Shown here one piece after another: positions 9,621 to 31,722 of a stretch of 64,000 bases of DNA (within the stretch, counting starts at the first letter, position 1; the number at the start of each line of letters is the position of its first letter). The stretch spans positions 103,577-167,576 of the forward strand of contig OZ219784.1 of NCBI GenBank assembly GCA_964291305.2. The letters run 5' to 3'. Below the pieces are notes generated by a model that was given only the letters and a program-made list of their open reading frames with translations, ran no database searches and was not told where the DNA came from. The position numbers and the translations under genes were made by a program. This stretch comes from Acidimicrobiales bacterium. Its GTDB lineage: Bacteria; Actinomycetota; Acidimicrobiia; Acidimicrobiales; CATQHL01.

Positions 9621-11336
9621 ATGAGCCCGCGGGTCGTCAGCCTGGACGACCCCAAAGCTCTCCAGGTCAGCGAAGTTGGAGCCAAAGCCGCCGGCTTGGC
9701 CCGGGCGCGGCGCGCTGGCTTGCCGGTGCTGGATGGGTTCGTCGTCACCCTGGCAGCCTCTGCTAAACCGCTACAGCAGGCTGCCGCCGAGCTTTCGGGA
9801 CGCGGCTCGGGTGCCGCCCGGATGGTGCTGCTGCGCAGCGAACTAGACGATTCACTAATAGATGAGATCGCCGCCGCAGCCGCGGAGCTAGCCGAACCGC
9901 TCATCGCCCGCTCCTCTAGCGCGCTGGAAGGGGAAGGCAAATGGGCGGGGGCGTTCGCCTCGCTGCCCGAACTGAAGCGGGCGGAGGTGCCGAAGGCGCT
10001 GCGCAGCGTTTGGTCGGCGATGTTCACCCTCGAAGCCCTGGAACGTTTCGAAGCCTCCGGCATTGAACCCGCCAGCGCACTCATGGGTGTGTTGCTGCAG
10101 ACCGAGCTGGCGCCAGACTGCGGCGGCGCAGCTACCGCCGACGAGATTGGCAGTGTCAGAGTCTCAGCGGTGAAAGGCTCGCCGCGCGACCTGCTGGCGG
10201 GCTGGGTGCCAGGCGTGCAGGCCACCGTGGGGCCCGACGGCAGCATCTCTGGCAGCGAAGCGCTGGACCAAATAGGTGCCGCCACCCTCAACCAGGTGGC
10301 AGACTTGGCCCGCCGGGCCGCCACCGAGCTGGGCTGCAACCTAGTGGAGTGGGCTGTCACCGGTGGCGCGGCCGTGCTGCTACAGGTACAGCGCACCGTC
10401 ACCCCGACTGCCAGCAGCCGGGTGGAGTTGCCTGCCGCTCTGGGACATCCCCAAGCGCGGCGGTTAGCCCGGCTGGCGATGACTTATCCAGGGGCCTTGG
10501 GTGAAGAGTTAGTGCTGGGCTGGGCGGCGGGTCCGACCGGAGCTAGCAATGCTGGGGCCATCGATGCGGGATCTGTAGGGGGCGGGCAGTGCTCGGGACA
10601 AGGGCTTAGAGATCTGCTGGCTAGAACTCGCTCGGTTTCTGCTGAGTTGACTTCTCTGGCTTGGGGGCGGCCAATCGAAGAGGCTGCGGCTCTGGCCCGG
10701 TCGGTGCTTCGACGGTTGCGAGGAGATCGACCCAACGAATCGATCGAAGCCTTGGGGGAACTCGCGGCACCAGATGCAGCTATGGCTGCCGAAGTGTTGG
10801 AGAGCATCAGTCGGTTGGGGGTTGCTTTGGGCGATCCGCACGGTGTCTGGTATCACTCCGCTGATGAGTTGGCCGAAATACTGGCTGGTGACGCCGCTAG
10901 AGAGCGGGGCCGGGTGGGGCGAGACCGCTGGGAGCCGTTCCTGGCTGGAGTGGCAGCACTGGCGGGCGAGGCGCTGAGCGGGATCGGGGCCTCCGGGGGC
11001 ATCGGGGCCGGTCGACTGGTCTGGGTACCGAGCCCCACGGCAGTTGACCACGTGCGCCCACGGGACGTGATCTTGGTGCAGTACCCGCTGGCTAACTTCG
11101 CTCCCCTGCTGTGGGACGCCGCCGGACTTGTAGCGCTTGGCGGCGCACCCTCGGCCCACCTCATGGAAGTAGCCCGCTCCCTAGCGGTGCCCGCCGTCGT
11201 GAGCTGCCCGATCGATGACCTTGTCGAACTAAAGTCGGCCAGCCAGAAAGTCGGCGCAACTCACGAAACCCAGCGTGCGCTTCACCTCGCAACCGTCGAT
11301 GGGGATGAGGGCCGCGTGGCAGTGCTGGAGCTTTGA
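9621..11336 (+). CDS. PEP-utilising enzyme family protein (PPDK-N-like ATP-grasp domain plus mobile phosphohistidine domain)
   Basis: 571-aa ORF. N-terminus VGAKAAGLARARRAGLPVLDGFVV resembles the PEP/pyruvate-binding domain. C-terminus DVILVQYP...LVALGGAPSAHLMEVARSLAVPAVV resembles the swivelling His domain. Confidence 0.65.
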   Translation: MSPRVVSLDDPKALQVSEVGAKAAGLARARRAGLPVLDGFVVTLAASAKPLQQAAAELSGRGSGAARMVLLRSELDDSLIDEIAAAAAELAEPLIARSSSALEGEGKWAGAFASLPELKRAEVPKALRSVWSAMFTLEALERFEASGIEPASALMGVLLQTELAPDCGGAATADEIGSVRVSAVKGSPRDLLAGWVPGVQATVGPDGSISGSEALDQIGAATLNQVADLARRAATELGCNLVEWAVTGGAAVLLQVQRTVTPTASSRVELPAALGHPQARRLARLAMTYPGALGEELVLGWAAGPTGASNAGAIDAGSVGGGQCSGQGLRDLLARTRSVSAELTSLAWGRPIEEAAALARSVLRRLRGDRPNESIEALGELAAPDAAMAAEVLESISRLGVALGDPHGVWYHSADELAEILAGDAARERGRVGRDRWEPFLAGVAALAGEALSGIGASGGIGAGRLVWVPSPTAVDHVRPRDVILVQYPLANFAPLLWDAAGLVALGGAPSAHLMEVARSLAVPAVVSCPIDDLVELKSASQKVGATHETQRALHLATVDGDEGRVAVLEL

Positions 11337-12253
11337 TGAGCACCCTAAGCACCGACGGTCGTCCTCGTGTTATTCCCCGCGTCGGGGTAATCGGCGTCGG
11401 CGTTATGGGCGCAGCCATGTCCGATCACCTGGTAAACGCCGGCTTCGAGGTTTGCGGCTACGACGTAGACCCTTCGAAGTTAGAAGACGTGGCGGCCACC
11501 GGGGTTGGCTCGGTCGCTGAAATCGCCGCCCGCAGCGACGTAGTGCTGCTTTCGCTGCCCTCGTCGGAGGCTCTGGAGACCGTGTCAGCGGAGCTAGCCG
11601 CAGCACGGCCAAGCGGAGTCGTGGCTGTCGAGATGGGCACGCTGCCCCTCGAGGCGAAGCAGCGGGCCTACGAGCGCCTGACCGCGGTGGGCTGTGACCT
11701 GCTAGACGCCCCCGTGAGTGGCACCGGCCTACAGGCTGCCGACGCCACGCTGGTCATCTACAGCAGCGGCAACCGCGCTAGCTTCCAGCGAGCGCGGCCG
11801 ATATTCGAGGTGATCGGCCGCCGCTGCTACGACCTAGGGGCCTTCGGCAACGGCAGTCGGATGAAGTTCGTGGCCAACCTGCTAGTGGCAGTGCACACCC
11901 TCGCAGCAGCCGAGGCGCACGCCCTCGCAGCAGCAGCCGGGCTGAGTGCCGAAGTCACCCAAGAGGTGATCTCAGCCGGCGTGGGCACCTCGTCGATGTT
12001 CGACATCCGCGGCCCGATGATGGCAGCGGACAACTTCCGCCCGCCGTCGGCCCGCCTGGCGATCATTCACAAGGACGCCGACATCATTGCTGACTTCGCC
12101 CGCGGGGCCGGCGCCGAGACGCCTCTGCTGGACGCCGCCCTGCCGCTGTATCGGCGCGGCCTTGAGGCTGGCCTCGGCGACCTGGATGCGGCCGCACTGC
12201 GTCGCTTGTTCCCGCCAACCCCGCAGGAACGGGAACCCCTAACGTCCCCTTAG
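11336..12253 (+). CDS. NAD(P)-dependent 3-hydroxyisobutyrate/6-phosphogluconate dehydrogenase-family oxidoreductase
   Basis: Rossmann motif VGVIGVGVMGAAMSDHL. ATG 11336 shares 1 nt (A at 11336) with the upstream stop codon TGA 11334-11336; the track start is TTG 11333. Confidence 0.8.
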   Translation: MSTLSTDGRPRVIPRVGVIGVGVMGAAMSDHLVNAGFEVCGYDVDPSKLEDVAATGVGSVAEIAARSDVVLLSLPSSEALETVSAELAAARPSGVVAVEMGTLPLEAKQRAYERLTAVGCDLLDAPVSGTGLQAADATLVIYSSGNRASFQRARPIFEVIGRRCYDLGAFGNGSRMKFVANLLVAVHTLAAAEAHALAAAAGLSAEVTQEVISAGVGTSSMFDIRGPMMAADNFRPPSARLAIIHKDADIIADFARGAGAETPLLDAALPLYRRGLEAGLGDLDAAALRRLFPPTPQEREPLTSP

Positions 12254-12289
12254 AAGGCGCCAATAGAGCGCCCAAACAGCCCAACAGCG

Positions 12290-12357
12290 CCCCACCAGCC
12301 CAAATAGCCACCAACCCAAATAGGCCCCACCAGCCCAAATAGCCACCAACCCAAATA
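12290..12357 (+). repeat. Perfect 33-bp direct repeat x2 (35-bp period) in a G/T-poor leader
   Basis: ccccaccagcccaaatagccaccaacccaaata at 12290-12322 and 12325-12357. It lies immediately 5' of the RBS aaaggag and ATG 12371. Confidence 0.9.
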
Positions 12358-12370
12358 AAAGGAGAACCGC

Positions 12371-13330
12371 ATGACTATCCCCCGCAAGGTGCTGAGCACC
12401 GACCTGCTAGAGGAGTACTGCACCCGGTTCTGTAACTGGGGCCGCTGGGGAGACGAAGACGAGGTCGGCACCCTCAACTTCATCACCCCGGAGAAAATCA
12501 TCGGTTCGGCTTCGCTGGTGCGCTCTGGCAAGGTGTTCTCGCTGGAGTTACCGCTGGACAGCAACGGACCCCAGACCGGGGCCTTCGGCCGGGTCAACCC
12601 AGTGCATCAGATGGTTGCAACCGGCACTGACCACATCCTTGGGCGCCAGGACTGGCCGCTGGAGTGGGGCGTGGCCGACGACTCGCTGTTCCTGTTCCTG
12701 CAGGGTGGCACGCAGTGGGACGCCCTGGCGCACATCTTCCACAAGGGGAAGATGTACAACGGTTTCGACGCCAGCTTGGTGCACGCCAAGGGCGCTGATC
12801 GCAACGGCATCCAGAACCAGAAGACGGTGGTTTCCCGCGGCGTGCTGCTAGACGTGCCCCGGGCGCTGGGGCGGGAGCACCTGGAGCCGGGGGAGCCAAT
12901 TGACGGCGACCTGCTGGATGAGACCTGCACCCACCACGGCGTACAGGTCGGCACCGGTGACATCGTGCTGATCCGCACCGGCGACATGCAGCGCCGCCGG
13001 CACCTGCCGGGCTGGGACGGCTACTCCGCTGGCGACTCCCCAGGGCTGTCGCTGCTGTCGGCCCCGTGGCTGGCCGAGCGAGAAATCGCCGCCGTGGCTA
13101 CCGACACCTGGGGAGCCGAAGTGCGCCCCAACGAGATCCCCGACAGCTTCCAGCCGCTGCACCTAGTGATGGTGGTGAACATGGGCCTCTTCGTGGGCGA
13201 GATCTGGTACCTGGACGAGCTGGCAGAGGATTGCGCCGCCGACGGCGTGTACGAGTTTCAGCTGGTGGCGCCGCCGCTGGTCATCCCTCGAGCTGTCGGA
13301 TCGCCGCTCAACCCCCAGGCCATCAAATAA
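12371..13330 (+). CDS. Putative cyclase / arylformamidase family protein
   Basis: 319-aa [21 protein letters not shown] and [13 protein letters not shown] resemble the PF04199-type cyclase/kynurenine formamidase family. Confidence 0.7.
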
Positions 13331-13379
13331 CCCACCTGAGATAAATAGCCCACCGAGGACCCTTGCCAGGGAGGTCACC

Positions 13380-14297
13380 GTGAGCATCCAAGGGCGCCTG
13401 CCAGCAGACGTGCCGATCGGCTGGATCGGCACCGGAGTCATGGGTGCCTCCATGTGCGGGCACCTCATGAGCGCTGGCCACCCCGCAGCCGTCCACACCC
13501 GCACCCGCGCCAAGGCCGCCGGGCTGCTAGAGCAGGGCGCGACATGGGCCGACTCGCCACGCCAGGTAGCCGAGGCAACCGGCGTGATCTTCAGCATCGT
13601 GGGCTACCCGGCTGACGTGCGGGAGGTGATCTTGGGCCCCGACGGCGTGTTGGCCGGCTGTCGCGGCGGCGAGGTAATCGTGGACATGACCACCAGCGAA
13701 CCTTCCCTGGCAGTCGAGATAGCCGAGGCGGCCGCGGCTCGGGGTGTAGCGGCGGTGGACGCTCCCGTATCGGGGGGCGATGTGGGTGCCCGCGGCGGCA
13801 CCCTTTCGATCATGATCGGGGGCGACGCCGAGGTGGTGACCTCCCTAGCGCCCTTCTGGGATGCCATGGGGCGCACCTGGGTACACCAGGGCGGCCCCGG
13901 CGCCGGCCAGCACACCAAGATGGTGAACCAGACGCTCATAGCCGCCGGCATGATCAGCGTATGTGAGGGCCTGCTCTACGCCTGGCGGGCCGGGCTAAAC
14001 CTAGAACAGGTCATGGAGTCGGTAGCCAGCGGCGCGGCGGGCAGCTGGTCGCTCTCCAACCTGGGCACCCGCATGATCGCCGGCAACTTCGACCCGGGCT
14101 TCTTCGTTGAGCATTTCGTAAAAGACATGGGCATCGCCCTCGCTGAGGCCGACCGCATGGGCCTCGAGCTGCCGGGCCTGCGGCTAGCCCGGGAACTCTA
14201 CGGCCAACTGATAGCCGCCGATCGGGGTCGCCTCGGCACTCAATCCCTGATTCTGGCCCTCGCCGAACTCTCGGGGCTGGACTGGGCTAAGCGCTGA
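13380..14297 (+). CDS. NAD(P)-dependent 3-hydroxyisobutyrate dehydrogenase-family oxidoreductase
   Basis: 305-aa ORF with GTG start and Rossmann motif [17 protein letters not shown]. Paralogue of 11336..12253. Confidence 0.8.
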
Positions 14298-14309
14298 GGC
14301 TCTGTCCGG

Positions 14310-14450
14310 CCTAGACTGGCCCCCGGTCCGGGGACGAAGTCCGGTTGGAATCCGGCACTGTCCCGCAACGGTGAAGCGATGCCTGTCGCTTGGGGAAGTT
14401 CCCCAGCTTCGAACCATCGCTGAGTCCGGTCGAATCCCGGCCCGAGCAAA
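14310..14450 (+). promoter_or_regulatory. Cobalamin (B12) riboswitch
   Basis: GGGACGAAGTCCGGTTGGAATCCGGCACTGTCCCGCAACGGTGAAGCG fits the conserved core GGGAA..GGTG..AATCC..CCCGC..AC.GT. A B12-box-like GAGTCCGGTCGAATCCCGGCC follows. It lies directly 5' of a BtuF-type gene. Boundaries are approximate. Confidence 0.65.
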
Positions 14451-14535
14451 CCACAACACCCTCGAGGATCAGGGTTGGTTTGGCCGGCAGCCTCTGTCGA
14501 TCGAGCTTCTGTCCTCGACCGACAGGAGGTACCCG

Positions 14536-15729
14536 ATGCTCAAACAGCGCTCCGTTGTATTTCTCGCTTGGATTCTGGCGCTTGCCGGCTTGCTAGCCGT
14601 CAGCTGCGGCAGCGACAACACATCTGACGCTACGGCTCCGGCTCCGCCACCGGTGGCCGAGCCCGCGCCAGCACCATCGGAAGTGGATCCGCCCCCGGCA
14701 CCGCCAGAACAACCCAGGGAGGAGGCCAGCCCCACGACGGCAACCGTCGAAGAACCCCCAGCAGCCTCCTCAGCTACGACGTCTTCGCCCACGACAACTG
14801 CGCCCACGACAACTGCGCCTACGACAACTGTCGCGGTCGCGCCCGAACCGCCGAGCACCACTAGCACGACCGTTGCCACAGCGGAAGAAGAACCAGCCGG
14901 TCTGGATGCTAGGTTCCCCGTCACGATCGACTCCGACGCCGGTACCTGGATGCTGGAGCAGGCACCACAGCGCATCGTTTCCCTGTCGCCGACTGCCACC
15001 GAGACCCTTTTCGCTGTCGGTGCGGGGCCGCAAGTAGTAGCTGCCGATAGTTGGTCAACTTTCCCCCCAGAGGCTCCGACCACCGACCTCTCGGCATTCA
15101 ACCCAAACGTTGAAGCCATAACCACATACGACCCCGACCTTGTGGTGATCTCCTACGACACAAACGACCTAGTTGCCAGCCTGACCGCACTGGAAATACC
15201 GGTACTGATGAGCACAAATCCAGCTGACATCGAGGGTGGTTACACCACTATGACCCAGCTCGCTACAGCCACCGGCCACGTCGAAGGAGCCCAGGAAGTT
15301 ATCGAGTCGATGCGTACCGCCATAACCGAAACCCTGGCAAGCGCCCCCGATATCCAGATCCGCGTGTACCACGAACTCGACAATACGTACTACTCGGCAA
15401 GCTCTAACGGCTTCGTGGGTTCGGTCTATTCCACGCTCGGCGTTATCAACATCGCCGATGAAGCAGACGTCAACGGCTCGGGATTCCCCCAGCTCACCGA
15501 GGAGTACATCATCGAGGCGGACCCGCAGCTGATCGTGATTACCGACCAGACGGGTTACACCGCTGAGGATGTTGCCGCCCGTCCCGGTTGGGATTCGATC
15601 AGCGCAGTGCGTGAGGGCAACATCCTCATGGTCAACGCCGACATTGCCTCGCGCTGGGGCCCTCGTCTTCCCCAGTTCCTCAGCGCCGTGACAGAGGCTC
15701 TGACAGAAATCGCTGCTACGGCCCCCTAA
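14536..15729 (+). CDS. BtuF/FhuD-type periplasmic-binding lipoprotein (cobalamin/siderophore ABC importer)
   Basis: Track ORF 14371..15729 overlaps the riboswitch. In-frame ATG 14536 follows RBS gacaggagg and gives signal peptide MLKQRSVVFLAWILALAGLLAVSCGS (lipobox-like). A long P/T/A-rich linker precedes RIVSLSPTATETLFAVGAG. Confidence 0.8.
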   Translation: MLKQRSVVFLAWILALAGLLAVSCGSDNTSDATAPAPPPVAEPAPAPSEVDPPPAPPEQPREEASPTTATVEEPPAASSATTSSPTTTAPTTTAPTTTVAVAPEPPSTTSTTVATAEEEPAGLDARFPVTIDSDAGTWMLEQAPQRIVSLSPTATETLFAVGAGPQVVAADSWSTFPPEAPTTDLSAFNPNVEAITTYDPDLVVISYDTNDLVASLTALEIPVLMSTNPADIEGGYTTMTQLATATGHVEGAQEVIESMRTAITETLASAPDIQIRVYHELDNTYYSASSNGFVGSVYSTLGVINIADEADVNGSGFPQLTEEYIIEADPQLIVITDQTGYTAEDVAARPGWDSISAVREGNILMVNADIASRWGPRLPQFLSAVTEALTEIAATAP

Positions 15730-15763: not shown

Positions 15764-16843
15764 ATGGCCGCACCGCCGGAACGTGCCGCGGCCGAAACGG
15801 CGGCACTGCGGGCATTCCGCTTGCCGCCGTTGGCGGCGGCAGTGGCTCTTGTAGTTGTTGCGGGCGTGGCGTTGCTTAGTGCGACGCGAGGCGCCGCCGG
15901 ACTGGGATTCACCGACGTGCTAGCGGCCATAGCGGATCGGCTGCCGCTAGTCGAGTTGGATTCGGGGCTGAGCAGCCGCCAGGAGGGCATTCTGTTCCAG
16001 ATTCGCCTGCCCCGGTTGGTGCTGGGAATGTTAGTGGGCGGGGCTTTAGCCATGGCCGGAGCCGCATATCAGGGCGTGTTCCGCAATCCCCTCGCAGACC
16101 CATACCTACTGGGCATCTCCGCCGGGGCGGGGTTCGGCGCCGTGCTAGCGATCGGGTTCGGCCTCGACTTGGGCCTGGGACCGTTCGACGCCGTGGCAGC
16201 GGCGGCGTTCGTCGGGGCGATAGTGGCGGTTACGGCCTCAGCCACCATCGCCCGGGGCGCCTGGCGCTCGACTGCCACGCTGCTACTGGCCGGCATCGCT
16301 ATGGCTTCCCTTTTCTCTGCCGCCCAGACCTACGCCTTGAGCCAGCTGAACGAGGCGCTCACCCGCGAGGTGATTTCATGGCTGTTCGGCCGGCTGAACA
16401 CCAGTGGCTGGGGGGAAGTAGGGATCCTGGGGCCTTACGTGATCGTCTGCGGGCTTGTCCTGCTGTTGCACCGCCGCCATCTGGATGTGCTGCGGGTGGG
16501 CGACGACGAGGCCCGCTCTCTGGGAATAAACCCAACTCGACTGCGGCTGGTGGTTATCCTCGCCGCCTCGCTGCTGACAGCCGCGGCGGTGTCGGTCAGC
16601 GGTCTAATAGGTTTTGTGGGCCTTGTCGTGCCCCATGTCGTCCGGCTGCTGGTGAGCCATAGTTACCGCGTCATCGTGCCACTCTCGGCGCTTGGCGGAG
16701 CGGCCTTTCTGGCGTTGGTGGACACCGGAGCCCGCACGCTCACCGCCCCCGCCGAACTGCCGGTCGGGGTAATCACCGCGTTAGTGGGCGCCCCGTTCTT
16801 CGTGCTGGTGCTGTGGCGCGCCTCCCGCAAGGTGCTGGCATGA
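15764..16843 (+). CDS. FecCD/BtuC-family ABC importer permease
   Basis: 359-aa polytopic membrane ORF. ILFQIRLPRLVLGMLVGGALAMAGAAYQGVFRNPLADPYLLGIS is typical of FecCD permeases. Confidence 0.85.
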   Translation: MAAPPERAAAETAALRAFRLPPLAAAVALVVVAGVALLSATRGAAGLGFTDVLAAIADRLPLVELDSGLSSRQEGILFQIRLPRLVLGMLVGGALAMAGAAYQGVFRNPLADPYLLGISAGAGFGAVLAIGFGLDLGLGPFDAVAAAAFVGAIVAVTASATIARGAWRSTATLLLAGIAMASLFSAAQTYALSQLNEALTREVISWLFGRLNTSGWGEVGILGPYVIVCGLVLLLHRRHLDVLRVGDDEARSLGINPTRLRLVVILAASLLTAAAVSVSGLIGFVGLVVPHVVRLLVSHSYRVIVPLSALGGAAFLALVDTGARTLTAPAELPVGVITALVGAPFFVLVLWRASRKVLA

Positions 16844-18261
16844 CGGCAGGCACAGCTCATCTTCCGCCTTCAAGCGGCGATGCACTAACAGAGCTGGACT
16901 CAGCTGCCGAATCGCTCACCTGTCGGCAGATACGGGTGTCGTTCGGCGAGATCGAGGCACTGCGCGGGGTAGACCTGCGGCTGAGCAGCGGAGAGTGGCT
17001 TGGCCTGATCGGACCGAACGGCGCCGGCAAGTCCACGCTGCTGCGCGCAATCGCTGGCCTGGTGGACTACGAAGGCAGCGTCTCTCTGGGCTGTGGCCGG
17101 CGGCTTGGCGGCCAAGATGTGGCCCTAGTGCCGCAGAACCCAACACTGCCCGAAGGCATGACTGTGGCCGAGTACGCCCTGCTGGGTCGAAGCCCCCACC
17201 TGGGTTGGCTGGAGGTGGAGTCGCGCCGTGACCGCCGCATAGTAGCCACGGCGTTGGAGCGGCTGAACCTGCAGCGGTTCGCCGACCGCCCCGTGACTCA
17301 CCTTTCCGGTGGCGAAATCCAGCGCGTCACGTTAGCGCGAGCGCTCGTCCAGCAGGCCCCGATCCTGCTCTTAGACGAGCCGACAAGCTCGCTAGATCTA
17401 GGCCACCGAGATTCTGTACTGGAGTTGATAGACAAACTGCGTCGCAACGTCGGAGTCTCAGTGATCGCCGCCATGCACGACCTCAGCACGGCTGCTCGCT
17501 TTGCCGACCGTTTGGCGCTAATCCACCGGGGGCGCATCGTGGCCGACGGCCCGCCGCAGAGCGTCCTGCAACCCAGCAGACTCTCTGCGGTCTACGCCAC
17601 GCCGCTAAACGTCCACACCATCGACGGCGAAATAGTCGTCTTGCCCACTGCCCGAACCGACCCGAACCAACAGGAGCACCCGACCATGACAACCGACCAA
17701 GCACCCCTTACCGAACGACCCTACGAGCGAGGTGAGTTGCGCTCGGCACCCTCGCTGGTGCTGGTCAACACCGGCGAGGGGAAAGGTAAGTCCACGGCGG
17801 CGTTCGGCACGGTTTTGCGGGCCGTGGCTTTGGGCTGGCCGACCGCAGTGGTTCAGTTCCTCAAGAGCGGAGATTGGAATACCGGCGAAGAGAAAGTATG
17901 TCGCAGCCTGGGCGTGGAGTGGTCCTCAGCAGGCGACGGCTTCACCTGGGAATCCGAGGACCTGGACGAGACCCAAGCTAAAGCAGTAGCCGCCTGGCAG
18001 TTCTCTGCCGAGTTGATAGCGGCGGGCAATCACCGGCTAGTGGTGCTAGACGAGATCAGCTACGCCATGACCTGGGGTTGGATCGCCGCCGCCGAAGTAG
18101 CCGCAGCGCTGGCTGGCCGCCCAGAGCAGGTCAACGTAATCCTGACAGGGCGGGACATGGCCGCAGAAATAGTCGAAGTGGCCGACACCGTTAGCGAGAT
18201 GGTGAGCGTGAAACATGCCTTCGACCGCGGTATTCGGGCCAAGAAGGGAATCGACTACTAG
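16840..18261 (+). CDS. Fusion protein: ABC importer ATPase (BtuD/FepC-like) + cob(I)alamin adenosyltransferase (CobO/BtuR)
   Basis: ATG 16840 forms an ATGA overlap with the permease stop. Walker A GPNGAGKST, signature LSGGEIQR, Walker B LLLDEPTS. With no intervening stop, a CobO domain follows: LVLVNTGEGKGKSTAAFG...VVLDEISYAM...VKHAFDRGIRAKKGIDY. An internal ATG sits at 17686. Confidence 0.8.
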   Translation: MTAGTAHLPPSSGDALTELDSAAESLTCRQIRVSFGEIEALRGVDLRLSSGEWLGLIGPNGAGKSTLLRAIAGLVDYEGSVSLGCGRRLGGQDVALVPQNPTLPEGMTVAEYALLGRSPHLGWLEVESRRDRRIVATALERLNLQRFADRPVTHLSGGEIQRVTLARALVQQAPILLLDEPTSSLDLGHRDSVLELIDKLRRNVGVSVIAAMHDLSTAARFADRLALIHRGRIVADGPPQSVLQPSRLSAVYATPLNVHTIDGEIVVLPTARTDPNQQEHPTMTTDQAPLTERPYERGELRSAPSLVLVNTGEGKGKSTAAFGTVLRAVALGWPTAVVQFLKSGDWNTGEEKVCRSLGVEWSSAGDGFTWESEDLDETQAKAVAAWQFSAELIAAGNHRLVVLDEISYAMTWGWIAAAEVAAALAGRPEQVNVILTGRDMAAEIVEVADTVSEMVSVKHAFDRGIRAKKGIDY

Positions 18262-18372
18262 TGACTACTAATTCTGCGTAAATTCTCGTAATTTTCGGCT
18301 GTCATAGCCCTGGGGTATGGTGCCTTTCGGCAGTTGCCAAACCGACCACCGACCGCAGACGGAGGGAGCTAG

Positions 18373-20658
18373 ATGGCGTATCAGATCATCCAGTCGGAAC
18401 CGTACTGGGACTGCGTGAGTTCGCTGCGTCGAGATGATCCCTACAAGTCTCACCTGGTGGACACACTCGACGATTTGCGGCGTCAACCGTTCGGCAACCC
18501 TCGCCTAAGCACCCACGACATCGGCACGGCGCGCAACGGCCGCAAACTCTTTTCCTCCGATGTAGGTGGCCGGACAAGCGACCGGCGCGTCGTCTGGCAG
18601 ATCTTCGGCCAGACCATCGTTGTACTGCTCTACGGCAACCACAAGGTCCAGGACCGGGCCAAGCGGATGCAGATCAGCTTCGATCAGCAGCAGCAGTTGA
18701 TGCAGGTGTACGAGCAGGCACCAGACTCCGAGGCAGAGCGGCCATATCGGGAACACCGCAAGACTTCAGGAACTCTGTTCATGGCGTGGACCGACCGAGA
18801 GTTGGCTTCACTTGGCTTCCCAGAACCCACCGTGGAGCACCTGCGCCGCTTGAACAGCGAGGACGAGCTTCTAGCGCTCGAAGAGAACCTGGGCCCTCAA
18901 CTTTTTGAACTCGCTGTTGAGGTAATCACCGTCGGCCCACCGGTAAGGACTATCGGCACAGCCACCGCATTGGAAGCCCCCGAGCCGCCGGTAAGCGCCA
19001 AGCCTCCAGTGGATCGCCAGCCCGAGGCACCAACCAGCGCTGAGGCCAGCACGGCTACGGCCCCGGCAACCCCGCCCGAGGTGAGCGACGAGGACCGCGA
19101 GCTGGAGCGTCTGCTGAACGACGAGCAGGCCGGAGCGCTGTTCACTCGGTTGGAGCCGGAGTTCATGGCCGAAGTGATCGGCCGACCCATCGAGGACTGG
19201 ATGATCTTCTTGCACCCCGATCAGCGCTCCACTGCAACTCGGCGTTACCAGGGCCCAGCCCGGGTGCGCGGCCCCGCTGGTACCGGCAAGACGGTGGTGG
19301 GCCTACACCGAGCCGCCCACTTAGCCGCTCGCAGCCGCGCCGCCGAGGCTGCTGGCCCAGCGAGCGATAGTGAGCCAACCCTTCCGGTGCTTGTCACTAC
19401 CTACATCAGCTCGCTGCCGCCGGTTTTCGAGGAGTTGTACGGGCGCATGCCCGGCACCCAGTCGGGCGAAGTGGAGTTCCTCAACGTCGACAAGCTGGCC
19501 CGGCAGGTATGCAAAGAGGCAGAAGAACGAGCTTATGTCAACTCGCGCAAGGTGGATACTGCTTACGAACAGGCCTTCAAGCAAGTCGTCTTGCCCGGTA
19601 CGCCGCTGCACGGCCTTACCTCGCGGTACCTGCAAGATGAGATCACCAAGATGATCAAGGGTCGGGCCATCGAGTCTTTAGAGGATTATCTGGGGATGGA
19701 GCGCACCGGCCGCCGAATGCGGCTGGGGCGGCTGCAGCGGACCCAGGTTTGGGAGTTGATGGAGTGCTGGGACGCCGAGATGGATCGACACGGCACCATG
19801 GACTTCTGCGATGTGATCCTGCGAGCACTATGGGTAGCTCGAGAAAGCACCCGGCCGCGCTATTCGGCCGTGATCGTCGACGAGGCCCAAGATCTGACCA
19901 TGGCTGGTTTGCAGTTTCTGCGGGCGCTAGTCAACGCCCCGGATCACGACGTAGACCGCCCCGATGGGCTGTTCATCCTGGGTGACGGGGCACAGCGCAT
20001 TTATCCCGGCGGTTTCACGCTGCGCCAGGCGGGGGTAGAGGTGCGCGGCCGCACCACCGTGTTGACCGAGAACTACCGCAACACTGGCGAGATCATCAGC
20101 GCGGCGCTAGCCGTGGCGGGCGATCACCGCGTGGAGGACCTCAGCGAGGAGTTCCAGCGGGGAGACGAGACGATCACAACCAGCCGTCAGGGCCCTCGAC
20201 CGTTGCGGATCGAAGCCCAAGGCTGGGATAACCAAGCCGCGGCCATCGCTCAATGCATCCAGGACTTCATAGCCGAGGACACGAGCCTCGGTCATGGAGG
20301 TATGGCGGTGTTAGTGAGTTCCAACAACGCTGCAAACGGATTCCGCAACCGCCTGGAACAGTTGGAGTTAGCAGTGCAGCCTCTAGAGAACTACGACGGA
20401 CAGCCCAACGACAAGGTAAAGGTAGGTACCTACCACCGCGCCAAGGGGCTGGAGTTCAAAGTGGTGTTCCTCCCACAACTCGGCCGTTTCCCACCCGACC
20501 CACGCAAGGGCCAAGGCGAAGAAGAAGCAGCCGAGGACTACGACCTACACATGTCGCAGTTGTTCGTAGCCATGACCCGTGCCCGAGACCGGCTAGTGGT
20601 ACTCCACAGCCCCAACGGAAGCAAAGCAATAGACCCCGCCACCGACTACTTCGAGTAG
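18373..20658 (+). CDS. RelE/ParE-like N-terminal domain fused to an SF1 (UvrD-like) helicase
   Basis: 761 aa. Residues 1-100 are toxin-like (SDRRVVWQIFGQTIVVLLYGNHK). The helicase core has WMIFLHPDQ, Walker A GPAGTGKT (aa 300-307), VIVDEAQD, ENYRNT, YHRAKGLEFKVVF and FVAMTRARDRLVVL. Confidence 0.8.
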   Translation: MAYQIIQSEPYWDCVSSLRRDDPYKSHLVDTLDDLRRQPFGNPRLSTHDIGTARNGRKLFSSDVGGRTSDRRVVWQIFGQTIVVLLYGNHKVQDRAKRMQISFDQQQQLMQVYEQAPDSEAERPYREHRKTSGTLFMAWTDRELASLGFPEPTVEHLRRLNSEDELLALEENLGPQLFELAVEVITVGPPVRTIGTATALEAPEPPVSAKPPVDRQPEAPTSAEASTATAPATPPEVSDEDRELERLLNDEQAGALFTRLEPEFMAEVIGRPIEDWMIFLHPDQRSTATRRYQGPARVRGPAGTGKTVVGLHRAAHLAARSRAAEAAGPASDSEPTLPVLVTTYISSLPPVFEELYGRMPGTQSGEVEFLNVDKLARQVCKEAEERAYVNSRKVDTAYEQAFKQVVLPGTPLHGLTSRYLQDEITKMIKGRAIESLEDYLGMERTGRRMRLGRLQRTQVWELMECWDAEMDRHGTMDFCDVILRALWVARESTRPRYSAVIVDEAQDLTMAGLQFLRALVNAPDHDVDRPDGLFILGDGAQRIYPGGFTLRQAGVEVRGRTTVLTENYRNTGEIISAALAVAGDHRVEDLSEEFQRGDETITTSRQGPRPLRIEAQGWDNQAAAIAQCIQDFIAEDTSLGHGGMAVLVSSNNAANGFRNRLEQLELAVQPLENYDGQPNDKVKVGTYHRAKGLEFKVVFLPQLGRFPPDPRKGQGEEEAAEDYDLHMSQLFVAMTRARDRLVVLHSPNGSKAIDPATDYFE

Positions 20659-20727: not shown

Positions 20728-22908
20728 CTACACCCAATCTCGAGGATTGTCTTTGTTTGAGGTGCTGCTGACACGACCCCTGTCATCCGAGGAATCGTCG
20801 GCCTTGTCAATCTGAAGCGAAACAGAGTCCGAGCCTTCAATGATGACCCGAACCCGGTCACCGGCACATGCTCCGAGCTGCTGCAGAGGTTCGGACACGT
20901 AGCCCAGCGAGAGACCCCCGACTGATGCGAGTGGCCAGTTCACCGAGAGCCGGCGACATCCCGGCGGCGAGGAAACCTGGACTCTGATGTTGCCATCGGG
21001 TTCGCAACCCAAGGCAGCAGCGATTTCCGGCGGGAACCCGGGAACGCTGTAGCCTTTGAAGAAGCGATCCTCAACTTCGAAGCACCAGTACGGAAAACCC
21101 GCGGCCGTGTAGCCATGCAAAACGTCGCTCAGAGGTCTCAGGACGATTGAAGAAGTGTCGGCAAGACTGACAAGGCCATCCCGGAGCACGAAACGAGGAG
21201 TCCCTACAAAGGAACGAACACTAAACTCGCTCACTCCGAACTGTCGAGGCAACTCTTCAAGGATCCTCTCAAGTCGAGTAGCCCCATTATCTTCGTGGAT
21301 CCTCTGGATGATTTCCGCTGCTATGCCTTCGTACTCATCCTCGATCCATTCGACGAGACCCCAACGCACCTTGTCCGCCCTAACAACGCTTTCAAGCACC
21401 GACAAGTGTGAAACAACTCTGCCGGGGTCTAGCCCACAAAGTTCAGCAATCTCGTCTCGCGTCGCAGGTCGTCCAATCTCAAGTAGCGCTGCCTTAGCTC
21501 GAGCCCTCCTGCTATTTCTGAGCGCAAGAAAGCCGCCGAGACGATGAAAATCGCAAAGAGACACGAGCAAGTCCCAGTACTGTTCCCAGCTTGCGCTGGG
21601 TAGATGCTCCCGAAGTGCGGATTCCTGAACTAGCCCCGCGTCATCCGCCAGATTGCGGGACTCGCGCCTCAGAACGTCAAGAACATCTAAGGCAGCTTCA
21701 TTGAGGCATAAACCCTCAAGGGGAGAAAATCCCAACCTCTCCTGAAGGAAGCAACATGCTAAGTCTTGGCTTTTTGCACTGTACTCGCCTACTACCGGAT
21801 CCGAAAAAATCGACGATATATGCTCTTCAAGTTCGTTCTCACTGAGGATTGGAGGAATCTGCTCTCGAAGCAGGGACGCCATAATCTCCAGATTCGACCC
21901 AATTTTTGACTCAAAAGAACGCGTGAGAGATTTCGTCATTTGCCTGACTCGTTCTCCTGAGAGATCGAGCATCTGGCCAAGCTCGCGATATGACACCCGA
22001 GATGGGGACATGATGCGCCTTTCAAGAGTCAGCTTCTCTTCGTGTCGCAGCCCTTCCCAGAGTTCGTCGATGGCCTTGAGCACCTGATCTGCGAGACTCT
22101 GGACTTTCACCAGGTCGGAGATACGAATCTCGTGGAACTCATCGGTCAACTCGAGTTTTGCTGCCAGGTTGCTGAGATCGATGTTGAGAGCGTCTCCCAG
22201 AGTGCGAGCCCCACAGAACTCTCCCGCTACGTTCAAGATTCTCTCCAATAGCGGGATCGCAGTTTCCCAACGCTTGTATTGCTTGGTGCGGCCTAAATCT
22301 GAGGGGAGCTGAGTTGCCAGTGCTATCTGTGTTTGATCCCAACGAACATCTTGACCGGTAAAGCTGACAGTCTGCCGGTCAGCAGCGGGGAGTGACTTGA
22401 AAAGACCGACGATCTGGGCAGCTTCAATAACGCACATCAAGTCCAACAGCGAAAGCACCCCGAAGTTTGGGAGCGCCAGGAGTTGAACGACTGTCAAAGG
22501 TTCACCCGGCTTAAGTCTCTTTTGGTTAAATCCTCGGAGGATGCAGTTCCGAGTCCGAGTTCGAAGGGGCAATTCGGACAATTGCTGGGGCGTCGAATCA
22601 GCGGGGATTACGATTTGTCCTTTGAACGAACCCGGATAGCTACTAACAGCAAGGTCGGCAAGTGCAGCTTGGGCTGCATTACTGATGGGCGTAGGACGGC
22701 GATCCCAAAATGTCATCAAGTCCCCGACGACCCCAAGGTCTGACCTGGCGGCCGGTGGAGCACCCACGGCTTGGAGGAACGCCGATGGAAGCGCGGCCGA
22801 CGAGAACGATTCAATGAAACCGCGGGGTAACAAGGGAGTTGGAGGGCTGCCCCAAGGTGCGAGCGGTGTCGCACTAACAACTTCAGGAACGCTCGCTGAG
22901 ATATTCAT
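20728..22908 (-). CDS. Large multi-HTH protein: RNAP alpha-CTD-like HhH + sigma-70 region-4-like HTH + HARE-type winged helices + C-terminal barrel-like domain; no catalytic motif seen
   Basis: 726-aa ORF, visibly lower G+C than its neighbours. aa ~108-165: LSELPLRTRTRNCILRG...LLALPNFGVLSLLDL. aa ~292-332: LTLERRIMSPSRVSYRELGQMLDLSGERVRQMTKSL. Later: ALLEIGRPATRDEIAELCG...VRWGLVEW. Confidence 0.6.
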   Translation of the reverse strand: MNISASVPEVVSATPLAPWGSPPTPLLPRGFIESFSSAALPSAFLQAVGAPPAARSDLGVVGDLMTFWDRRPTPISNAAQAALADLAVSSYPGSFKGQIVIPADSTPQQLSELPLRTRTRNCILRGFNQKRLKPGEPLTVVQLLALPNFGVLSLLDLMCVIEAAQIVGLFKSLPAADRQTVSFTGQDVRWDQTQIALATQLPSDLGRTKQYKRWETAIPLLERILNVAGEFCGARTLGDALNIDLSNLAAKLELTDEFHEIRISDLVKVQSLADQVLKAIDELWEGLRHEEKLTLERRIMSPSRVSYRELGQMLDLSGERVRQMTKSLTRSFESKIGSNLEIMASLLREQIPPILSENELEEHISSIFSDPVVGEYSAKSQDLACCFLQERLGFSPLEGLCLNEAALDVLDVLRRESRNLADDAGLVQESALREHLPSASWEQYWDLLVSLCDFHRLGGFLALRNSRRARAKAALLEIGRPATRDEIAELCGLDPGRVVSHLSVLESVVRADKVRWGLVEWIEDEYEGIAAEIIQRIHEDNGATRLERILEELPRQFGVSEFSVRSFVGTPRFVLRDGLVSLADTSSIVLRPLSDVLHGYTAAGFPYWCFEVEDRFFKGYSVPGFPPEIAAALGCEPDGNIRVQVSSPPGCRRLSVNWPLASVGGLSLGYVSEPLQQLGACAGDRVRVIIEGSDSVSLQIDKADDSSDDRGRVSSTSNKDNPRDWV

Positions 22909-23201: not shown

Positions 23202-23253
23202 GACTTCCCTCACCGGGCTGTGGGTGTCGTATTGTGTTAGTACCGTCTGGGTT

Positions 23254-26084
23254 GTGAGTGTGCGGCGGAAGTTGGTTGAGGTGGCGTTGCCGTTGGATGC
23301 GATCAACGCGGCGTCGGCTCGGGAGAAGTCGATCCGTCATGGGCATCCGTCGACTTTGCATTTGTGGTGGTCACGGAAGCCGTTGGCTGCGTGCCGGGCG
23401 GTGTTGTTCGCTTCGTTGGTGGACGACCCGTCTAGCCGCCCGGAGCGGTGGCCGACTGTTGAGGCTCAGACCGCTGAGCGCAAGCGCCTGTTCGGGATTA
23501 TTGAGCGGCTAGTCCGCTGGGATAACAGCAACAACTCGGACGTGTTGGCCGAGGCGCACGCGGAGATCGCCGAGAGCTGCGACGGCGACTTACCTACTGT
23601 GTTGGACCCTTTCGCCGGCGGAGGGTCGATTCCGTTGGAGGCTCAACGGCTGGGGTTGAAGGCGGTTGCGTCTGATTTGAACCCGGTGGCAGTGCTAATC
23701 AACAAAGCACAAATCGAAATACCACCCCGGTTCGCTAATCGCCCTCCGGTGCATCCCGACCAGGAGGGCGCCACGCAACTGCGGGTTTGGTCTGGCGCTC
23801 AGGGCCTGGCCGCCGATGTGGCCTACTACGGCCGATGGATGCGAGACGAAGCCGAACGTCGCATCGGCAGCCACTACCCCACCGCCGCCAACTCGGACGG
23901 CGAGCAGCTAACGCCTATCGCCTGGATCTGGGCGCGCACCGTGCGGTCGCCAGACCCCGCCTGGAACGGCCACGTGCCACTAGCGCGATCGTTCGTGGTG
24001 TCAAAGAAGAAGGGGCGCGAGGCTTGGGCGAAGCCGGTCGTCGATCGGGCAGCCCAACGATCAGATTCGAGATCCGGACTGGCGTATCGCTGATGCTCTT
24101 GAGGGCACGGTGACCGTGGCGGTGGCCGCTGCTTGGCCACCGGCACAGCCATGCCATTCCCCTATATCCGCCAAGAGGGTCGCGCCGGGCGTATGGGCTT
24201 ACAGCTAATGGCAATCGTGGCAGAAGGCGACCGGCAGCGTGTCTACTTGCCGCCGACAGCGGATCACGTCGAGGCGGCCCGGGTGCCGCCGCCGGAGGCC
24301 CCCCCCCCCCGCGAGGCGATTTACCGCACAATCCCCGAGATTTCAAGACTCCTAACTACGGGATGACCTCATGGGCTGACCTATTCACCCCGCGGCAGTT
24401 GGTGGCCCTAACCACGTTTTCTGACCTGCTGGGTGATGTCTCCGAAATAGTATCTAGGGATGCGGCTGCGGTGGGCATGGCCGATGATGGGTTTCGGCTG
24501 CGCGACGGCGGTTGCGGTGCTCAAGCGTATGGGGACGCGATAGTTACGTATCTGGCTTTTGTGATTGATAAGTGCGCTGATTACTGGTCTTCGATCTGCA
24601 CCTGGACTAACTCAGGGGAATTTGTTCGTAGCACGTTTGCCCGTCAGGCGATCTCGATGAACTGGGACATGGCAGAAACGAATCCATTTTCTGATTCGAC
24701 GGGGAATTGGATATCGATGGTCGATTGGGTTTCCAAAGCGGTTAGCCAATCGCCTGCCCTATTTCCTGGCGAGGCGGTTCAGCAGGGCCACCGGTTGAAT
24801 AATCCTGCACGAACGTGGCACTTCCCAACCCTAGTCCCCGGCGAGGCGGCCCAGCAGGACGCCCAGTCCGCCGTCAAAGAGCACGAGAAAGTTCTCATTT
24901 CCACTGATCCGCCGTATTACGACAACATCGTGTACGCCGATTTGTCAGATTTCTTCTACGTGTGGCTGCGACGCAACCTCGCCGACGTTTGGCCGGAAGA
25001 ATGCTCGACGCTACTAGTGCCGAAAGCAGACGAACTAGTGGCAACGCCTTATCGGTTCGACGGCGACAAACGGCGAGCTGAAGAGTTCTTCGAGTCAGGG
25101 CTGAATCGTGTGTTCAGCGGTTTGGGGGAGGTGCAAGATGAGCGATTCCCGTTCACCGTCTACTACGCCTTCAAACAAGCGGAGACCACTAAGGGGGGCG
25201 TAGCGTCTACGGGCTGGGAGACGATGCTGCAGAGCCTGGTCGACGCCGGGTTCGTAATCAACGGCACCTGGCCGCTTCGAACAGAGCGGTCAAGTCGCCC
25301 TATCGCTGTCGGGGCGAACGCGCTGGCGTCTTCGATTGTGCTGGCCTGCCGGCGGCGGCCCGAGTCCGCCCCACTCGCTTCTCGGCGGGAGTTCCTGGGT
25401 GCTCTCAAAGCCGAACTGCCCGAGGCATTGCGCTTGCTGCGCCAGGGAGGCATCGCACCGGTGGATATGGCCCAAGCGGCTATCGGGCCGGGCATGGCAG
25501 TGTTCTCCCGCTACGAGCAGGTCATGGAAGCCAACGGCGAAACCATGAGAGTCCGCACCGCACTAGAACTGATCAACGAAACCCTCGACGAAGTCACACG
25601 AGAGATAGACGCCGACTTCGACTACGACACCCGCTGGGCGGTCAGCTGGTTCAGCGAATACGGCTTCGAAGAAGGCGAATACGGCCGCGCCGAGCTGCTG
25701 TCTAAGTCTCGCAACACCTCGGTAGCCGGTCTCGTAGAAGCAGGCATCGCCCAAGCCGGCGCCGGCCGGGTGCGCTTACTCCGCCTCGACGAACTAGACC
25801 TGGAATGGGACCCAGCAACCGACGACCGGTTCACCGTCTGGGAAATCACCCACCACCTCATCCGCCGCATCCACGACCTGGGCGAACAATCAGCCGCAAC
25901 CCTGCTGCGCGCGGTGGGAGGCCACGGCGACTCGGCCAAAGAACTCGCCTACCGCCTCTACCTAATCTGCGAACGCAAAAACTGGGCCGCCGAAGCGCTC
26001 GGCTACAACAGCCTCGTCACCTCCTGGGCCGAACTAACCAAACTCGCCACCCAAACCCCCACCACCGCCCCCACACTCCTATAA
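23254..26084 (+). pseudogene. DUF1156 / COG1743-type adenine-specific DNA methylase, disrupted (in-frame stops, at least 4 frame changes)
   Basis: N-terminus [55 protein letters not shown], motif [21 protein letters not shown], motif IV ISTDPPYYDNIVYADLSDFFYVWLRRN. The coding path jumps frames: 1 (to ~24050), 0 (TIRFEIRTG), 2 (DALEGTV), 1 (RGGGRCLATGTAMPFPYIRQEGRAGRMGLQLMAIV), then 0 after the C12 tract (DFKTPNYGMTSWADLFTPRQL). The track splits it into 23224..24093, 24133..24366 and 24363..26084. Confidence 0.75.
24299..24310 (+). repeat. Homopolymeric C12 tract inside the DUF1156 methylase reading frame
   Basis: 12 uninterrupted C, encoding the poly-Pro run. The reading frame changes exactly here. 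Confidence 0.95.
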
Positions 26085-31237: not shown

Positions 31238-31722
31238 CAGACACCCCCTCAAAACAGTGTGCACCGTTGGCTTCCGTTCGGCGGAGCCGACAAGCCGGAC
31301 AAACAACACCAACCCCGCAAACAGATCAGCGACCGGTACCAAGCAGTTTATCCAATCAACACAAAAACACAACGTCTGTATGTAATCTGAGGGAAATAAT
31401 TTTAAGCGACAGCCGCACAAAGACGGAAACGGTGTCGATCGCGCCGTCTAGTGCCTTCTCATCCCACCCCGCGGCAGGTGCTCTCACAGCACGGGGCGCT
31501 GGCACCCAACGCCCAAAGAAGCTGCTGGAACACTCACCGCCTGAGACTGCCGCTTGCGTCCTCTACGCAAAGTTCGACAGCACGCGCTACCGGCGCCCGG
31601 AACACTCACCGCCCGAGTTTGACGCTTGCGCCTAGGGCGAGATCGGCTTCGGCGGTGAGAACAACTACCCACGCAACCAGCGGGAACCGAAGCCGCTTGC
31701 GCCTAGTCCGAGATTAGCTGGC

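Follow-up and report, generated by a model that had tools for sequence, protein, structure and literature searches.

The question raised by this locus is what a RelE-like toxin domain does when it is covalently joined to a UvrD-like helicase. We analyzed a stretch of 64,000 nucleotides from an Acidimicrobiales contig (OZ219784.1), referred to below as the window, in which an open reading frame (ORF) at 18373-20658 on the plus strand encodes 761 amino acids (aa) plus a stop codon from an ATG start, according to the ORF list and its translation. The original prediction had presented the product as a toxin-helicase fusion belonging to no named system. The ORF and all motifs quoted there are present in the translation, with K306 as the Walker A lysine, but the architecture has been published as that of ArmD, a component of ARMADA type II. 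The gene probably, though by no means certainly, codes for a divergent ArmD-family protein that has been orphaned from its ARMADA partners, and sequence comparison suggests a role in defence. While the RelE-UvrD architecture itself was already described in 2025, the solo state of the gene and the different operon order in its relatives are new.

Homology to ArmD of ARMADA type II

In ARMADA type II, ArmA is a BrxHII-like SNF2 helicase, ArmB a PglX-like methylase and ArmC a YprA-like helicase, and the fourth component, ArmD, combines a RelE-like domain with a UvrD/GajB-like helicase (Bell et al., bioRxiv 10.1101/2025.09.15.676423). All four arm genes are essential, the ArmD substitution K266A abolishes defence and D454N weakens it, the protection is direct and non-abortive, and the RelE assignment of ArmD is an HHpred match with an E-value of 0.0085 (10.1101/2025.09.15.676423). 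A requirement for armD was also reported in enterohaemorrhagic Escherichia coli EDL933 (mBio 2026, PMC13463889). The gene order reported for type II is a "strict" A-B-C-D.

A published primer was used to find the reference ArmD, WP_000218177.1, in E. coli genomes. BLASTP aligned aa 265-746 of the window protein to residues 225-694 of E. coli ArmD (28% identity, E = 5e-51), and the hidden Markov model (HMM) of the clade aligned E. coli ArmD over HMM positions 26-731. The N-terminal 190 aa were compared by hhalign to seven ARMADA-type ArmD N-termini, including that of E. coli, which gave a probability of 98.1% and an E-value of 8e-14; the 170 collinear columns (columns 4-186) cover the RelE-like domain as well as the helical module that follows it. 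As homology extends over the helicase and the N-terminal unit, the window protein is a full-length, distant homologue of ArmD, collinear with WP_000218177.1 and carrying the N-terminal RelE-like domain that characterizes it, as judged by structure prediction and hhalign. Both proteins are composed of a RelE-like domain, a hairpin/helical module, a linker and a UvrD/GajB-like SF1 (superfamily 1) helicase. They differ in the linker, which is longer in the window protein, in the numbering of the Walker A lysine (K306 versus K266 in ArmD) and at position 48, which is His in the window protein and Glu in E. coli ArmD. An operon with ArmA, ArmB and ArmC in the order A-B-C-D was not found in the window.

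The N-terminal domain is predicted to adopt a RelE fold

Residues 1-110 were matched by none of the family models of Pfam, NCBIfam and PADLOC, and searches of the same segment against PDB sequences (phmmer and profile hmmsearch) returned chance matches alone (DtxR, SPC24, an antibody). The AlphaFold2 (AF2) model of aa 1-190, based on a 30-sequence alignment, had a predicted local distance difference test (pLDDT) value of 89 and a predicted template-modelling (pTM) score of 0.83, with the secondary-structure order beta-alpha-alpha-beta-beta-beta-beta in the first domain. Foldseek matches of this model in the PDB were almost exclusively mRNA interferases of the RelE superfamily. The best ones (1wmi_A, 9lew_B, 2a6r_C and 3oei_C) had E-values of 2e-4 to 1e-2, a probability of 1.0 and template-modelling (TM) scores to the target of 0.72-0.76; among them, archaeal RelE (1wmi_A) reached E = 2e-4 with a TM score of 0.74, and YoeB (2a6r_C) a TM score of 0.76. 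YafQ, RelK of Mycobacterium tuberculosis, HP0892, HP0894 and the CARF-RelE protein Cami1 were matched as well. A ParE-like reading, that is a gyrase poison, was rejected because the TM score for ParE was only about 0.5, below the range obtained with RelE, YoeB and YafQ.

A search of 1.84 billion representative proteins with a profile of aa 1-106 retrieved, in addition to the fusion family, standalone proteins of 88-101 aa that match Pfam YafQ_toxin: P0165 scored 36.3 bits (cut-off 30; its match to YoeB_toxin was below the cut-off of that model), P0166 scored 29.1 bits, just below the cut-off, and P0164 matched weakly with 18.7 bits. Compared by hhalign to E. coli YafQ together with the standalone proteins, the domain profile gave a probability of 97.6% and an E-value of 4.6e-12 over 80 columns, whereas the comparisons to single YoeB, RelE or YafQ sequences were in the right register but not significant. 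The YafQ and YoeB reference sequences were checked and are 100% identical to the PDB chains. Significance was reached only with this small YafQ-type profile, three of whose four template sequences had been retrieved by the query profile; the partial circularity is offset by the fold search and by the independent Pfam assignments, one of which exceeds the curated cut-off. By model and profile, aa 1-98 are a predicted RelE-superfamily fold, nearer to YafQ, YoeB and RelE than to ParE. Of the original assignment of aa 1-100 to RelE/ParE/HigB, the RelE part is thus upheld by the structure and profile searches, in which RelE, YafQ and YoeB came out best, while the ParE part has to be given up.

Two further proteins were noted in these searches. 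The aa 1-106 profile also matched P0163 (471 aa), which carries a Peptidase_M48 domain (E = 1.4e-4), and P0136 (1467 aa), which has the RelE-UvrD architecture followed by about 780 more residues without a Pfam match.

The putative catalytic site and a second conserved module

Catalysis by YafQ is of the acid-base type and involves H50, H63, D67 and H87, the general bases H50 and H63 being reported as functionally redundant (PMC4652777). The hhalign residue map places H48, D63, D70 and H90 of the window protein at these four positions, respectively, so that three of the four are kept (H48, D70 and H90) and YafQ H63 is replaced by Asp. H48, D70 and H90 are invariant in 13 of 13 aligned tier-1 sequences (12 distinct genes), in copies without partner genes (solo) and in YprA-linked copies alike, and the close clade likewise shows no variation at R71, R72, Y87 and R98. 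Nearly all members of the wider ArmD-like set retain H90 and R98; at position 48 most of them have His or Glu, and two tier-2 members have Lys. Reading the two sequences by eye rather than from a tool alignment, R72 and H90 also seem to align with YoeB R65 and H83. The putative site of aa 1-98 therefore looks catalytically competent, and RNase activity is predicted for it.

The RelE-like unit might instead be a catalytically dead adaptor that binds the ribosome, RNA or a partner, leaving ATP-driven translocation as the sole enzymatic activity. This is quite unlikely in our estimation. It would fit with the Glu and Tyr that E. coli ArmD has at the positions of H48 and D70, with the Asp at the YafQ H63 equivalent, and with the failure of the Pfam toxin models to match aa 1-98. 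E. coli constructs lacking armA, armB or armC but retaining armD were assayed for phage plating, with toxicity unreported, which suggests that the RelE-like domain is probably not constitutively toxic. However, nearly all family members retain H90 (equivalent to YafQ H87 and, by eye, to YoeB H83) and R98, and the residues usually found at position 48, His or Glu, are those used there by YafQ and YoeB. The domain also evolves with a ratio of nonsynonymous to synonymous substitutions (dN/dS) as low as that of the motor, and in sister proteins a NERD nuclease domain replaces the unit, suggesting an effector role.

According to the original prediction, a linker of about 170 aa, acidic and rich in P/A, would follow the toxin-like domain. 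This did not hold, as aa 99-186 are folded in the model and conserved, and disorder is confined to about aa 187-240. Within aa 99-186 the residues R129, G133, W139, G148, L157 and R158 are invariant, and the AF2 model shows a beta-hairpin and five helices (pLDDT 80-93). The pTM of 0.83 for the two-module unit suggests that aa 1-98 and aa 99-186 pack together, and the model implies that they would form one rigid unit. By contrast, aa 187-240 are of low identity, with 86% gaps at positions 201-220 of the alignment and pLDDT values below 50 at 190-228.

The helicase part and its relation to known systems

Pfam assigned UvrD-helicase (PF00580) to aa 282-544 and UvrD_C (PF13361) to aa 676-743. The best PADLOC model was NERD+UvrD (5.9e-26), with GajB models scoring up to 4.2e-22, and in Foldseek the full-length AF2 model (pLDDT 85) matched UvrD, PcrA and Rep best. 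The Walker A lysine K306 and the DEAQD motif (D503/E504) are invariant among 46 aligned homologues. Pfam, PADLOC and Foldseek thus agree with the earlier description of a complete UvrD-like motor, covalently joined to the RelE-like domain.

With UvrD, PcrA and Rep as best structural matches, and with the gene lying between uvrB and uvrA at one locus (L005), we considered a housekeeping repair or transcription helicase, a paralogue of UvrD, PcrA or HelD. This explanation is extremely improbable. The NCBIfam scores are far under the equivalog cut-offs (57 versus 911 for pcrA, 47 versus 1144 for uvrD, and 29-31 versus 419-1051 for HelD/HelR), and the protein evolves much faster than the flanking core genes. 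Nor is synteny conserved, as even syntenic genomes carry the gene at different insertion points, and the neighbours are toxin-antitoxin (TA) modules, methylases, transposases, GmrSD and ARMADA genes. The neighbourhood survey proposed with the original prediction accordingly found defence and mobile contexts, without conserved housekeeping synteny.

The closest helicase cores were those of NERD-UvrD proteins (PADLOC C3a187), which form the sister group in the neighbor-joining (NJ) tree and, like the window protein, have a domain of nuclease type placed N-terminal to the motor. This sister family comprises 41 actinomycete loci (L018-L066, for example L029 9422-11539; Streptomyces, Nocardia, Actinomadura and others) with helicases of about 690 aa that are 33-40% identical; their N-terminal motif reads LLADRRWPG..VD..VGP.GVFVVD.K.W. 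The N-terminus is however a NERD domain (PD-(D/E)xK-type) in these proteins and RelE-like in the window protein: hhalign of the window N-terminus versus NERD-type N-termini gave a probability of 0.5%, and the PADLOC NERD+UvrD match covers aa 494-746 only. Membership in NERD-UvrD was therefore rejected. ARMADA partners were absent within 10 kb of the NERD-UvrD loci. The presence of a NERD nuclease domain at the same place on the same helicase supports an effector role of the RelE-like unit.

GajB of Gabija resembles the window protein in being a UvrD-like SF1 helicase of anti-phage defence. Yet no GajA-like (OLD/TOPRIM) gene was found by Pfam or PADLOC among the neighbouring genes, so the pairing of GajB with GajA that defines Gabija is missing, and GajB was outside the top 50 Foldseek matches and the phmmer PDB matches. 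GajB is not known to carry a RelE-like N-terminal unit.

The toxins YafQ, YoeB and RelE resemble aa 1-98 in fold, in the profile match (E = 4.6e-12) and in the His/Asp/His at YafQ H50, D67 and H87, but they are standalone toxins of about 90 aa, whereas the domain studied here is fused to 660 further residues and its chain runs past the C-terminal catalytic His into a folded module. Although the RelE fold was found, a standalone toxin with an adjacent antitoxin was not, and the protein was not classified as a type II TA toxin. Cami1, a CRISPR-associated CARF-RelE protein (PDB 8phj, 8phb), also joins a RelE effector and a sensor/regulatory domain in one chain and lacks an antitoxin. Among the Foldseek matches it is found in a 70S ribosome complex, which indicates that a large fusion can still use its RelE domain on the ribosome. 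The two proteins are unrelated outside the RelE fold, Cami1 carrying a CARF domain that binds cyclic oligoadenylate and the window protein an ATP-driven helicase.

Solo copies and probable operon erosion

More than 110 clusters of full-length homologues of the fusion protein, 43-67% identical, were found, and aa 1-110 show strong conservation among them. The closest relatives in the genome collection come from metagenome-assembled genomes of Acidimicrobiales, others from Acidobacteriota, Binatia and further phyla. In the window, searches by phmmer and tblastn with ArmA, ArmB and ArmC and their actinobacterial equivalents revealed no homologues or remnants of the partners; the other window genes serve cobalamin uptake and biosynthesis, complex I and similar functions. 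We compared the contexts of 14 close relatives with known context, and at 10 of these loci (the window copy and nine others) the gene is solo. At L003 and L009, YprA-like and SNF2 genes, and at L009 a methylase gene too, lie directly downstream on the same strand, as do YprA-like and SNF2 genes at the more distant L013, where the order is D-C-A-B as at L003 and L009. Only yprA fragments are found downstream at L002 and L006. A YprA-like gene also lies directly downstream at L016, where the short contig ends. Among more distant members, L069 has the order C-D-A-B, and at L085, L087 and L089 the gene directly follows a YprA-like gene, its canonical position, with a methylase gene preceding yprA at L085. 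An antitoxin-sized gene was not conserved beside any relative at the 14 related loci compared. The YprA-like gene of L009 seems to be split into a 101-aa ORF (10292-10597, the YprA N-terminus) and a 1502-aa ORF (10536-15044) that begins at residue 218 of the L003 counterpart, which could be due to a frameshift or early decay.

The NJ tree of the helicase part (no bootstrap) has the YprA-linked loci at the base, the fragment-bearing loci in an intermediate position and the solo loci as the crown (window, L001, L007/8, L011, L012 and L091-L093), spanning 64-79% identity. Among the solo copies, dN/dS values of 0.12-0.20 in the RelE domain and 0.16-0.25 in the helicase, at synonymous divergence (dS) of about 0.3-1.2 (about 0.33 in one pair), show purifying selection. 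The yprA fragments beside L002 and L006 suggest that solo copies arise through operon erosion. We infer that in the ancestors of the clade the gene headed an ARMADA-like operon (ArmD-like, YprA-like, SNF2, PglX-like) whose partners were then lost, and the window copy would be a crown-group solo gene persisting in variable hotspots of defence and TA genes. In the syntenic L001, L092 and L093 the gene lies before btuF and not after cobO as in the window, and the window protein is 64-67% identical to these three copies while the flanking core proteins are 80-93% identical; the different insertion point together with the fast divergence is a pattern typical of a mobile, fast-evolving defence gene. 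Separately, L001 (8001-10385) and L093 (10001-12370) showed a mosaic dS, 0.27 in the helicase versus 0.9-1.6 in the RelE domain, second module and linker, suggesting recombination that exchanges the N-terminal unit between alleles.

Missing partner genes, a decayed surrounding island in which a DUF1156 methylase is split, and the ARMADA erosion at L002 and L006 could also mean that the gene is a non-functional relic, left behind by a degraded ARMADA system and turning into a pseudogene. We consider this very unlikely, since the frame of 761 codons is intact with every helicase and RelE-site motif present, selection has kept dN/dS at 0.12-0.25 among solo copies over the whole range of dS, and the solo state is common to the entire crown clade.

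Several observations weigh against an orphaned ArmD with a role in defence. Neither the 18 kb upstream nor the 43 kb downstream of the gene contains an ARMADA partner, so that the operon context is missing, and like the window the crown clade differs from ARMADA type II in having no nearby partner genes. Where relatives are linked, their order is D-C-A-B instead of A-B-C-D, and the partner systems of L003 and L009 are ARMADA-like by domain content only, their YprA proteins being 23-37% identical to ArmC, in parts. The helicase is only 28% identical to that of E. coli ArmD, and the unbootstrapped NJ tree puts it nearer to NERD-UvrD. At the putative active site, E. coli ArmD departs from the window protein at the positions of H48 (Glu) and D70 (Tyr), the window protein itself departs from YafQ at H63 (Asp), and the reported ArmD mutants, K266A and D454N, are not in the RelE site (10.1101/2025.09.15.676423).

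A possible mechanism and its alternatives

For an orphaned ArmD-family protein, a mechanism can be proposed in which the SF1A motor would load on nucleic acid derived from an invader and translocate using ATP. An RNase domain without an antitoxin would have to be held inactive in cis, and here the tethered domain would be restrained by the aa 99-186 module and/or the motor, probably. RNA, either ribosome-bound or nascent phage mRNA, would be cut only when the motor is engaged. By analogy with ARMADA, the outcome would probably be direct protection and not suicide.

The original prediction had favoured an autonomous single-chain abortive-infection device, in which the helicase would release the toxin domain on sensing foreign nucleic acid. 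The RelE-like toxin would then attack host translation, leading to dormancy or death of the infected cell. This now seems unlikely, as E. coli ArmD, the only characterized relative, needs ArmA, ArmB and ArmC and protects directly and non-abortively. The crown group does consist of solo genes only, with both domains under purifying selection and the catalytic residues retained, both an antitoxin gene and a conserved neighbour are absent, and Cami1 provides a precedent for a sensor and RelE in a single polypeptide that lacks an antitoxin. The yprA fragments at L002 and L006, however, point to solo copies arising by operon erosion, and unlinked partner genes may be present elsewhere in the genomes.

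The absence of partners from the 64 kb, together with purifying selection in the solo clade, makes some autonomous activity of the orphaned protein possible. A bolder version, which we put forward tentatively and with considerable doubt, is that the solo crown clade represents an autonomous one-protein defence derived from ARMADA. The motor would detect phage nucleic acid, aa 99-186 would be displaced as a built-in antitoxin, and a YafQ-like ribosome-dependent RNase would be freed on a 50-aa leash. If true, the logic of type II TA systems would be collapsed into a helicase-gated single chain.

Genomic neighbourhood and gene features

The gene forms the left edge of a variable stretch of about 15 kb (18.3-33.6 kb) between btuFCD-cobO and cobQ, which contains genes for a low-GC helix-turn-helix (HTH) protein, a split DUF1156/HmaB-like methylase, an N6/N4 methylase, a nucleotidyltransferase and a DUF222-HNH protein. 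The defence island at whose edge the gene had been placed is thus recognizable between the cobalamin genes, but it is decayed and not intact. In the spacer ahead of the gene (18262-18372) the ORF scan bore out the reported absence of an antitoxin-sized gene, the sole ORF there being one of 72 aa with a TTG start that runs on the minus strand and overlaps the start of the helicase gene, and a simple scan found no sigma-70-like promoter in it. A tRNA marking an integration site was not found in the window. The positions of the gene and its parts are given in Table 1.

Table 1. Positions of the fusion gene, its parts and its upstream spacer in the window
Feature	Position	Strand	Basis
Intergenic spacer of 111 bp, 3' of the btuD-cobO gene	18262..18372	.	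Sequence
Shine-Dalgarno-like GGAGGGA	18361..18367	+	Read from sequence, 6 nt ahead of the ATG
Whole gene, ArmD-like RelE-UvrD fusion	18373..20658	+	ORF list and translation
aa 1-98, RelE/YoeB/YafQ-fold domain, predicted endoribonuclease	18373..18666	+	AF2, Foldseek, hhalign
Codons of putative catalytic/invariant residues H48, D63, D70, R71, R72, Y87, H90, R98	18514..18666	+	
aa 99-186, conserved beta-hairpin and five-helix module	18667..18930	+	Conservation, AF2, hhalign to ArmD N-termini
aa 187-240, variable disordered P/A-rich linker	18931..19092	+	Alignment gaps, low pLDDT
aa 241-761, UvrD/PcrA/Rep-like SF1A helicase core	19093..20655	+	Pfam, PADLOC, Foldseek, BLASTP
Walker A GPAGTGKT, aa 300-307, lysine K306	19270..19293	+	Sequence, invariant in alignment
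Walker B/motif II DEAQD, aa 503-507	19879..19893	+	Sequence, invariant in alignment

Two neighbours were considered as possible partners, and the first of them was rejected. The convergent gene at 20728-22908 (minus strand), 69 bp from the helicase gene, encodes a 726-aa protein with weak matches to HTH and sigma-70 region 4; it has no homologue beside other family members, and its GC content of 53-58%, compared to 62-63% for the helicase gene and about 63% around it, suggests recent acquisition. An AAA_14-DUF4143 ATPase gene adjoins the RelE-UvrD gene at L001, L006, L007/L008, L011, L015, L092 and L093 (for example L093, 8618-9901), thus in several independent contexts, but is absent from the window; it may be a partner or a hitch-hiker.

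The DUF1156/HmaB-like methyltransferase is split into ORFs at 23224-24093 and 24363-26084 (plus strand) with a 270-bp gap, the first (289 aa) being the DUF1156 N-terminus and the second (573 aa) matching HmaB profile positions 419-960 (E = 3e-208). It is probably a pseudogenized remnant of Hma type, whose helicase/ATPase partners were not seen. The island also contains a DUF222-HNH endonuclease gene (29498-31420, minus strand), as does L005 (11725-13032); such genes are typical of actinobacterial mobile elements. Upstream of the helicase gene, a 482-aa ORF (16813-18261, plus strand) combines a BtuD-like ABC ATPase (aa 35-287) and a CobO/BtuR corrinoid adenosyltransferase (aa 310-482). In the syntenic L001, L092 and L093, btuD and cobO are two separate genes overlapping by a few bases, and the ORF in the window is either a true gene fusion or an artefact of a frameshift or of assembly. 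Further downstream, 37494-63827 (minus strand) holds two complex I-type gene sets with several Proton_antipo_M subunits and two genes for the 49-kDa subunit (45296-46465 and 62556-63827), pointing to two NADH-dehydrogenase or Mrp-like clusters in 27 kb.

Significance for the ArmD family

ArmD is essential to ARMADA defence, and our analysis shows that a YafQ/YoeB-type catalytic set is kept across its family. In addition, it delimits a second conserved module accompanying the RelE-like domain, and reveals that a NERD nuclease domain can take the place of the toxin-like unit on the same helicase chassis. In the solo clade the protein has outlasted its ARMADA partners while remaining under purifying selection, which amounts to a natural experiment: it could reveal whether the fusion of helicase and RNase is active by itself and what keeps a toxin fold harmless when no antitoxin is present. 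Should the solo protein prove active by itself, its gene would be a new and compact defence gene, and would offer a clean system in which RNases gated by a helicase can be studied.

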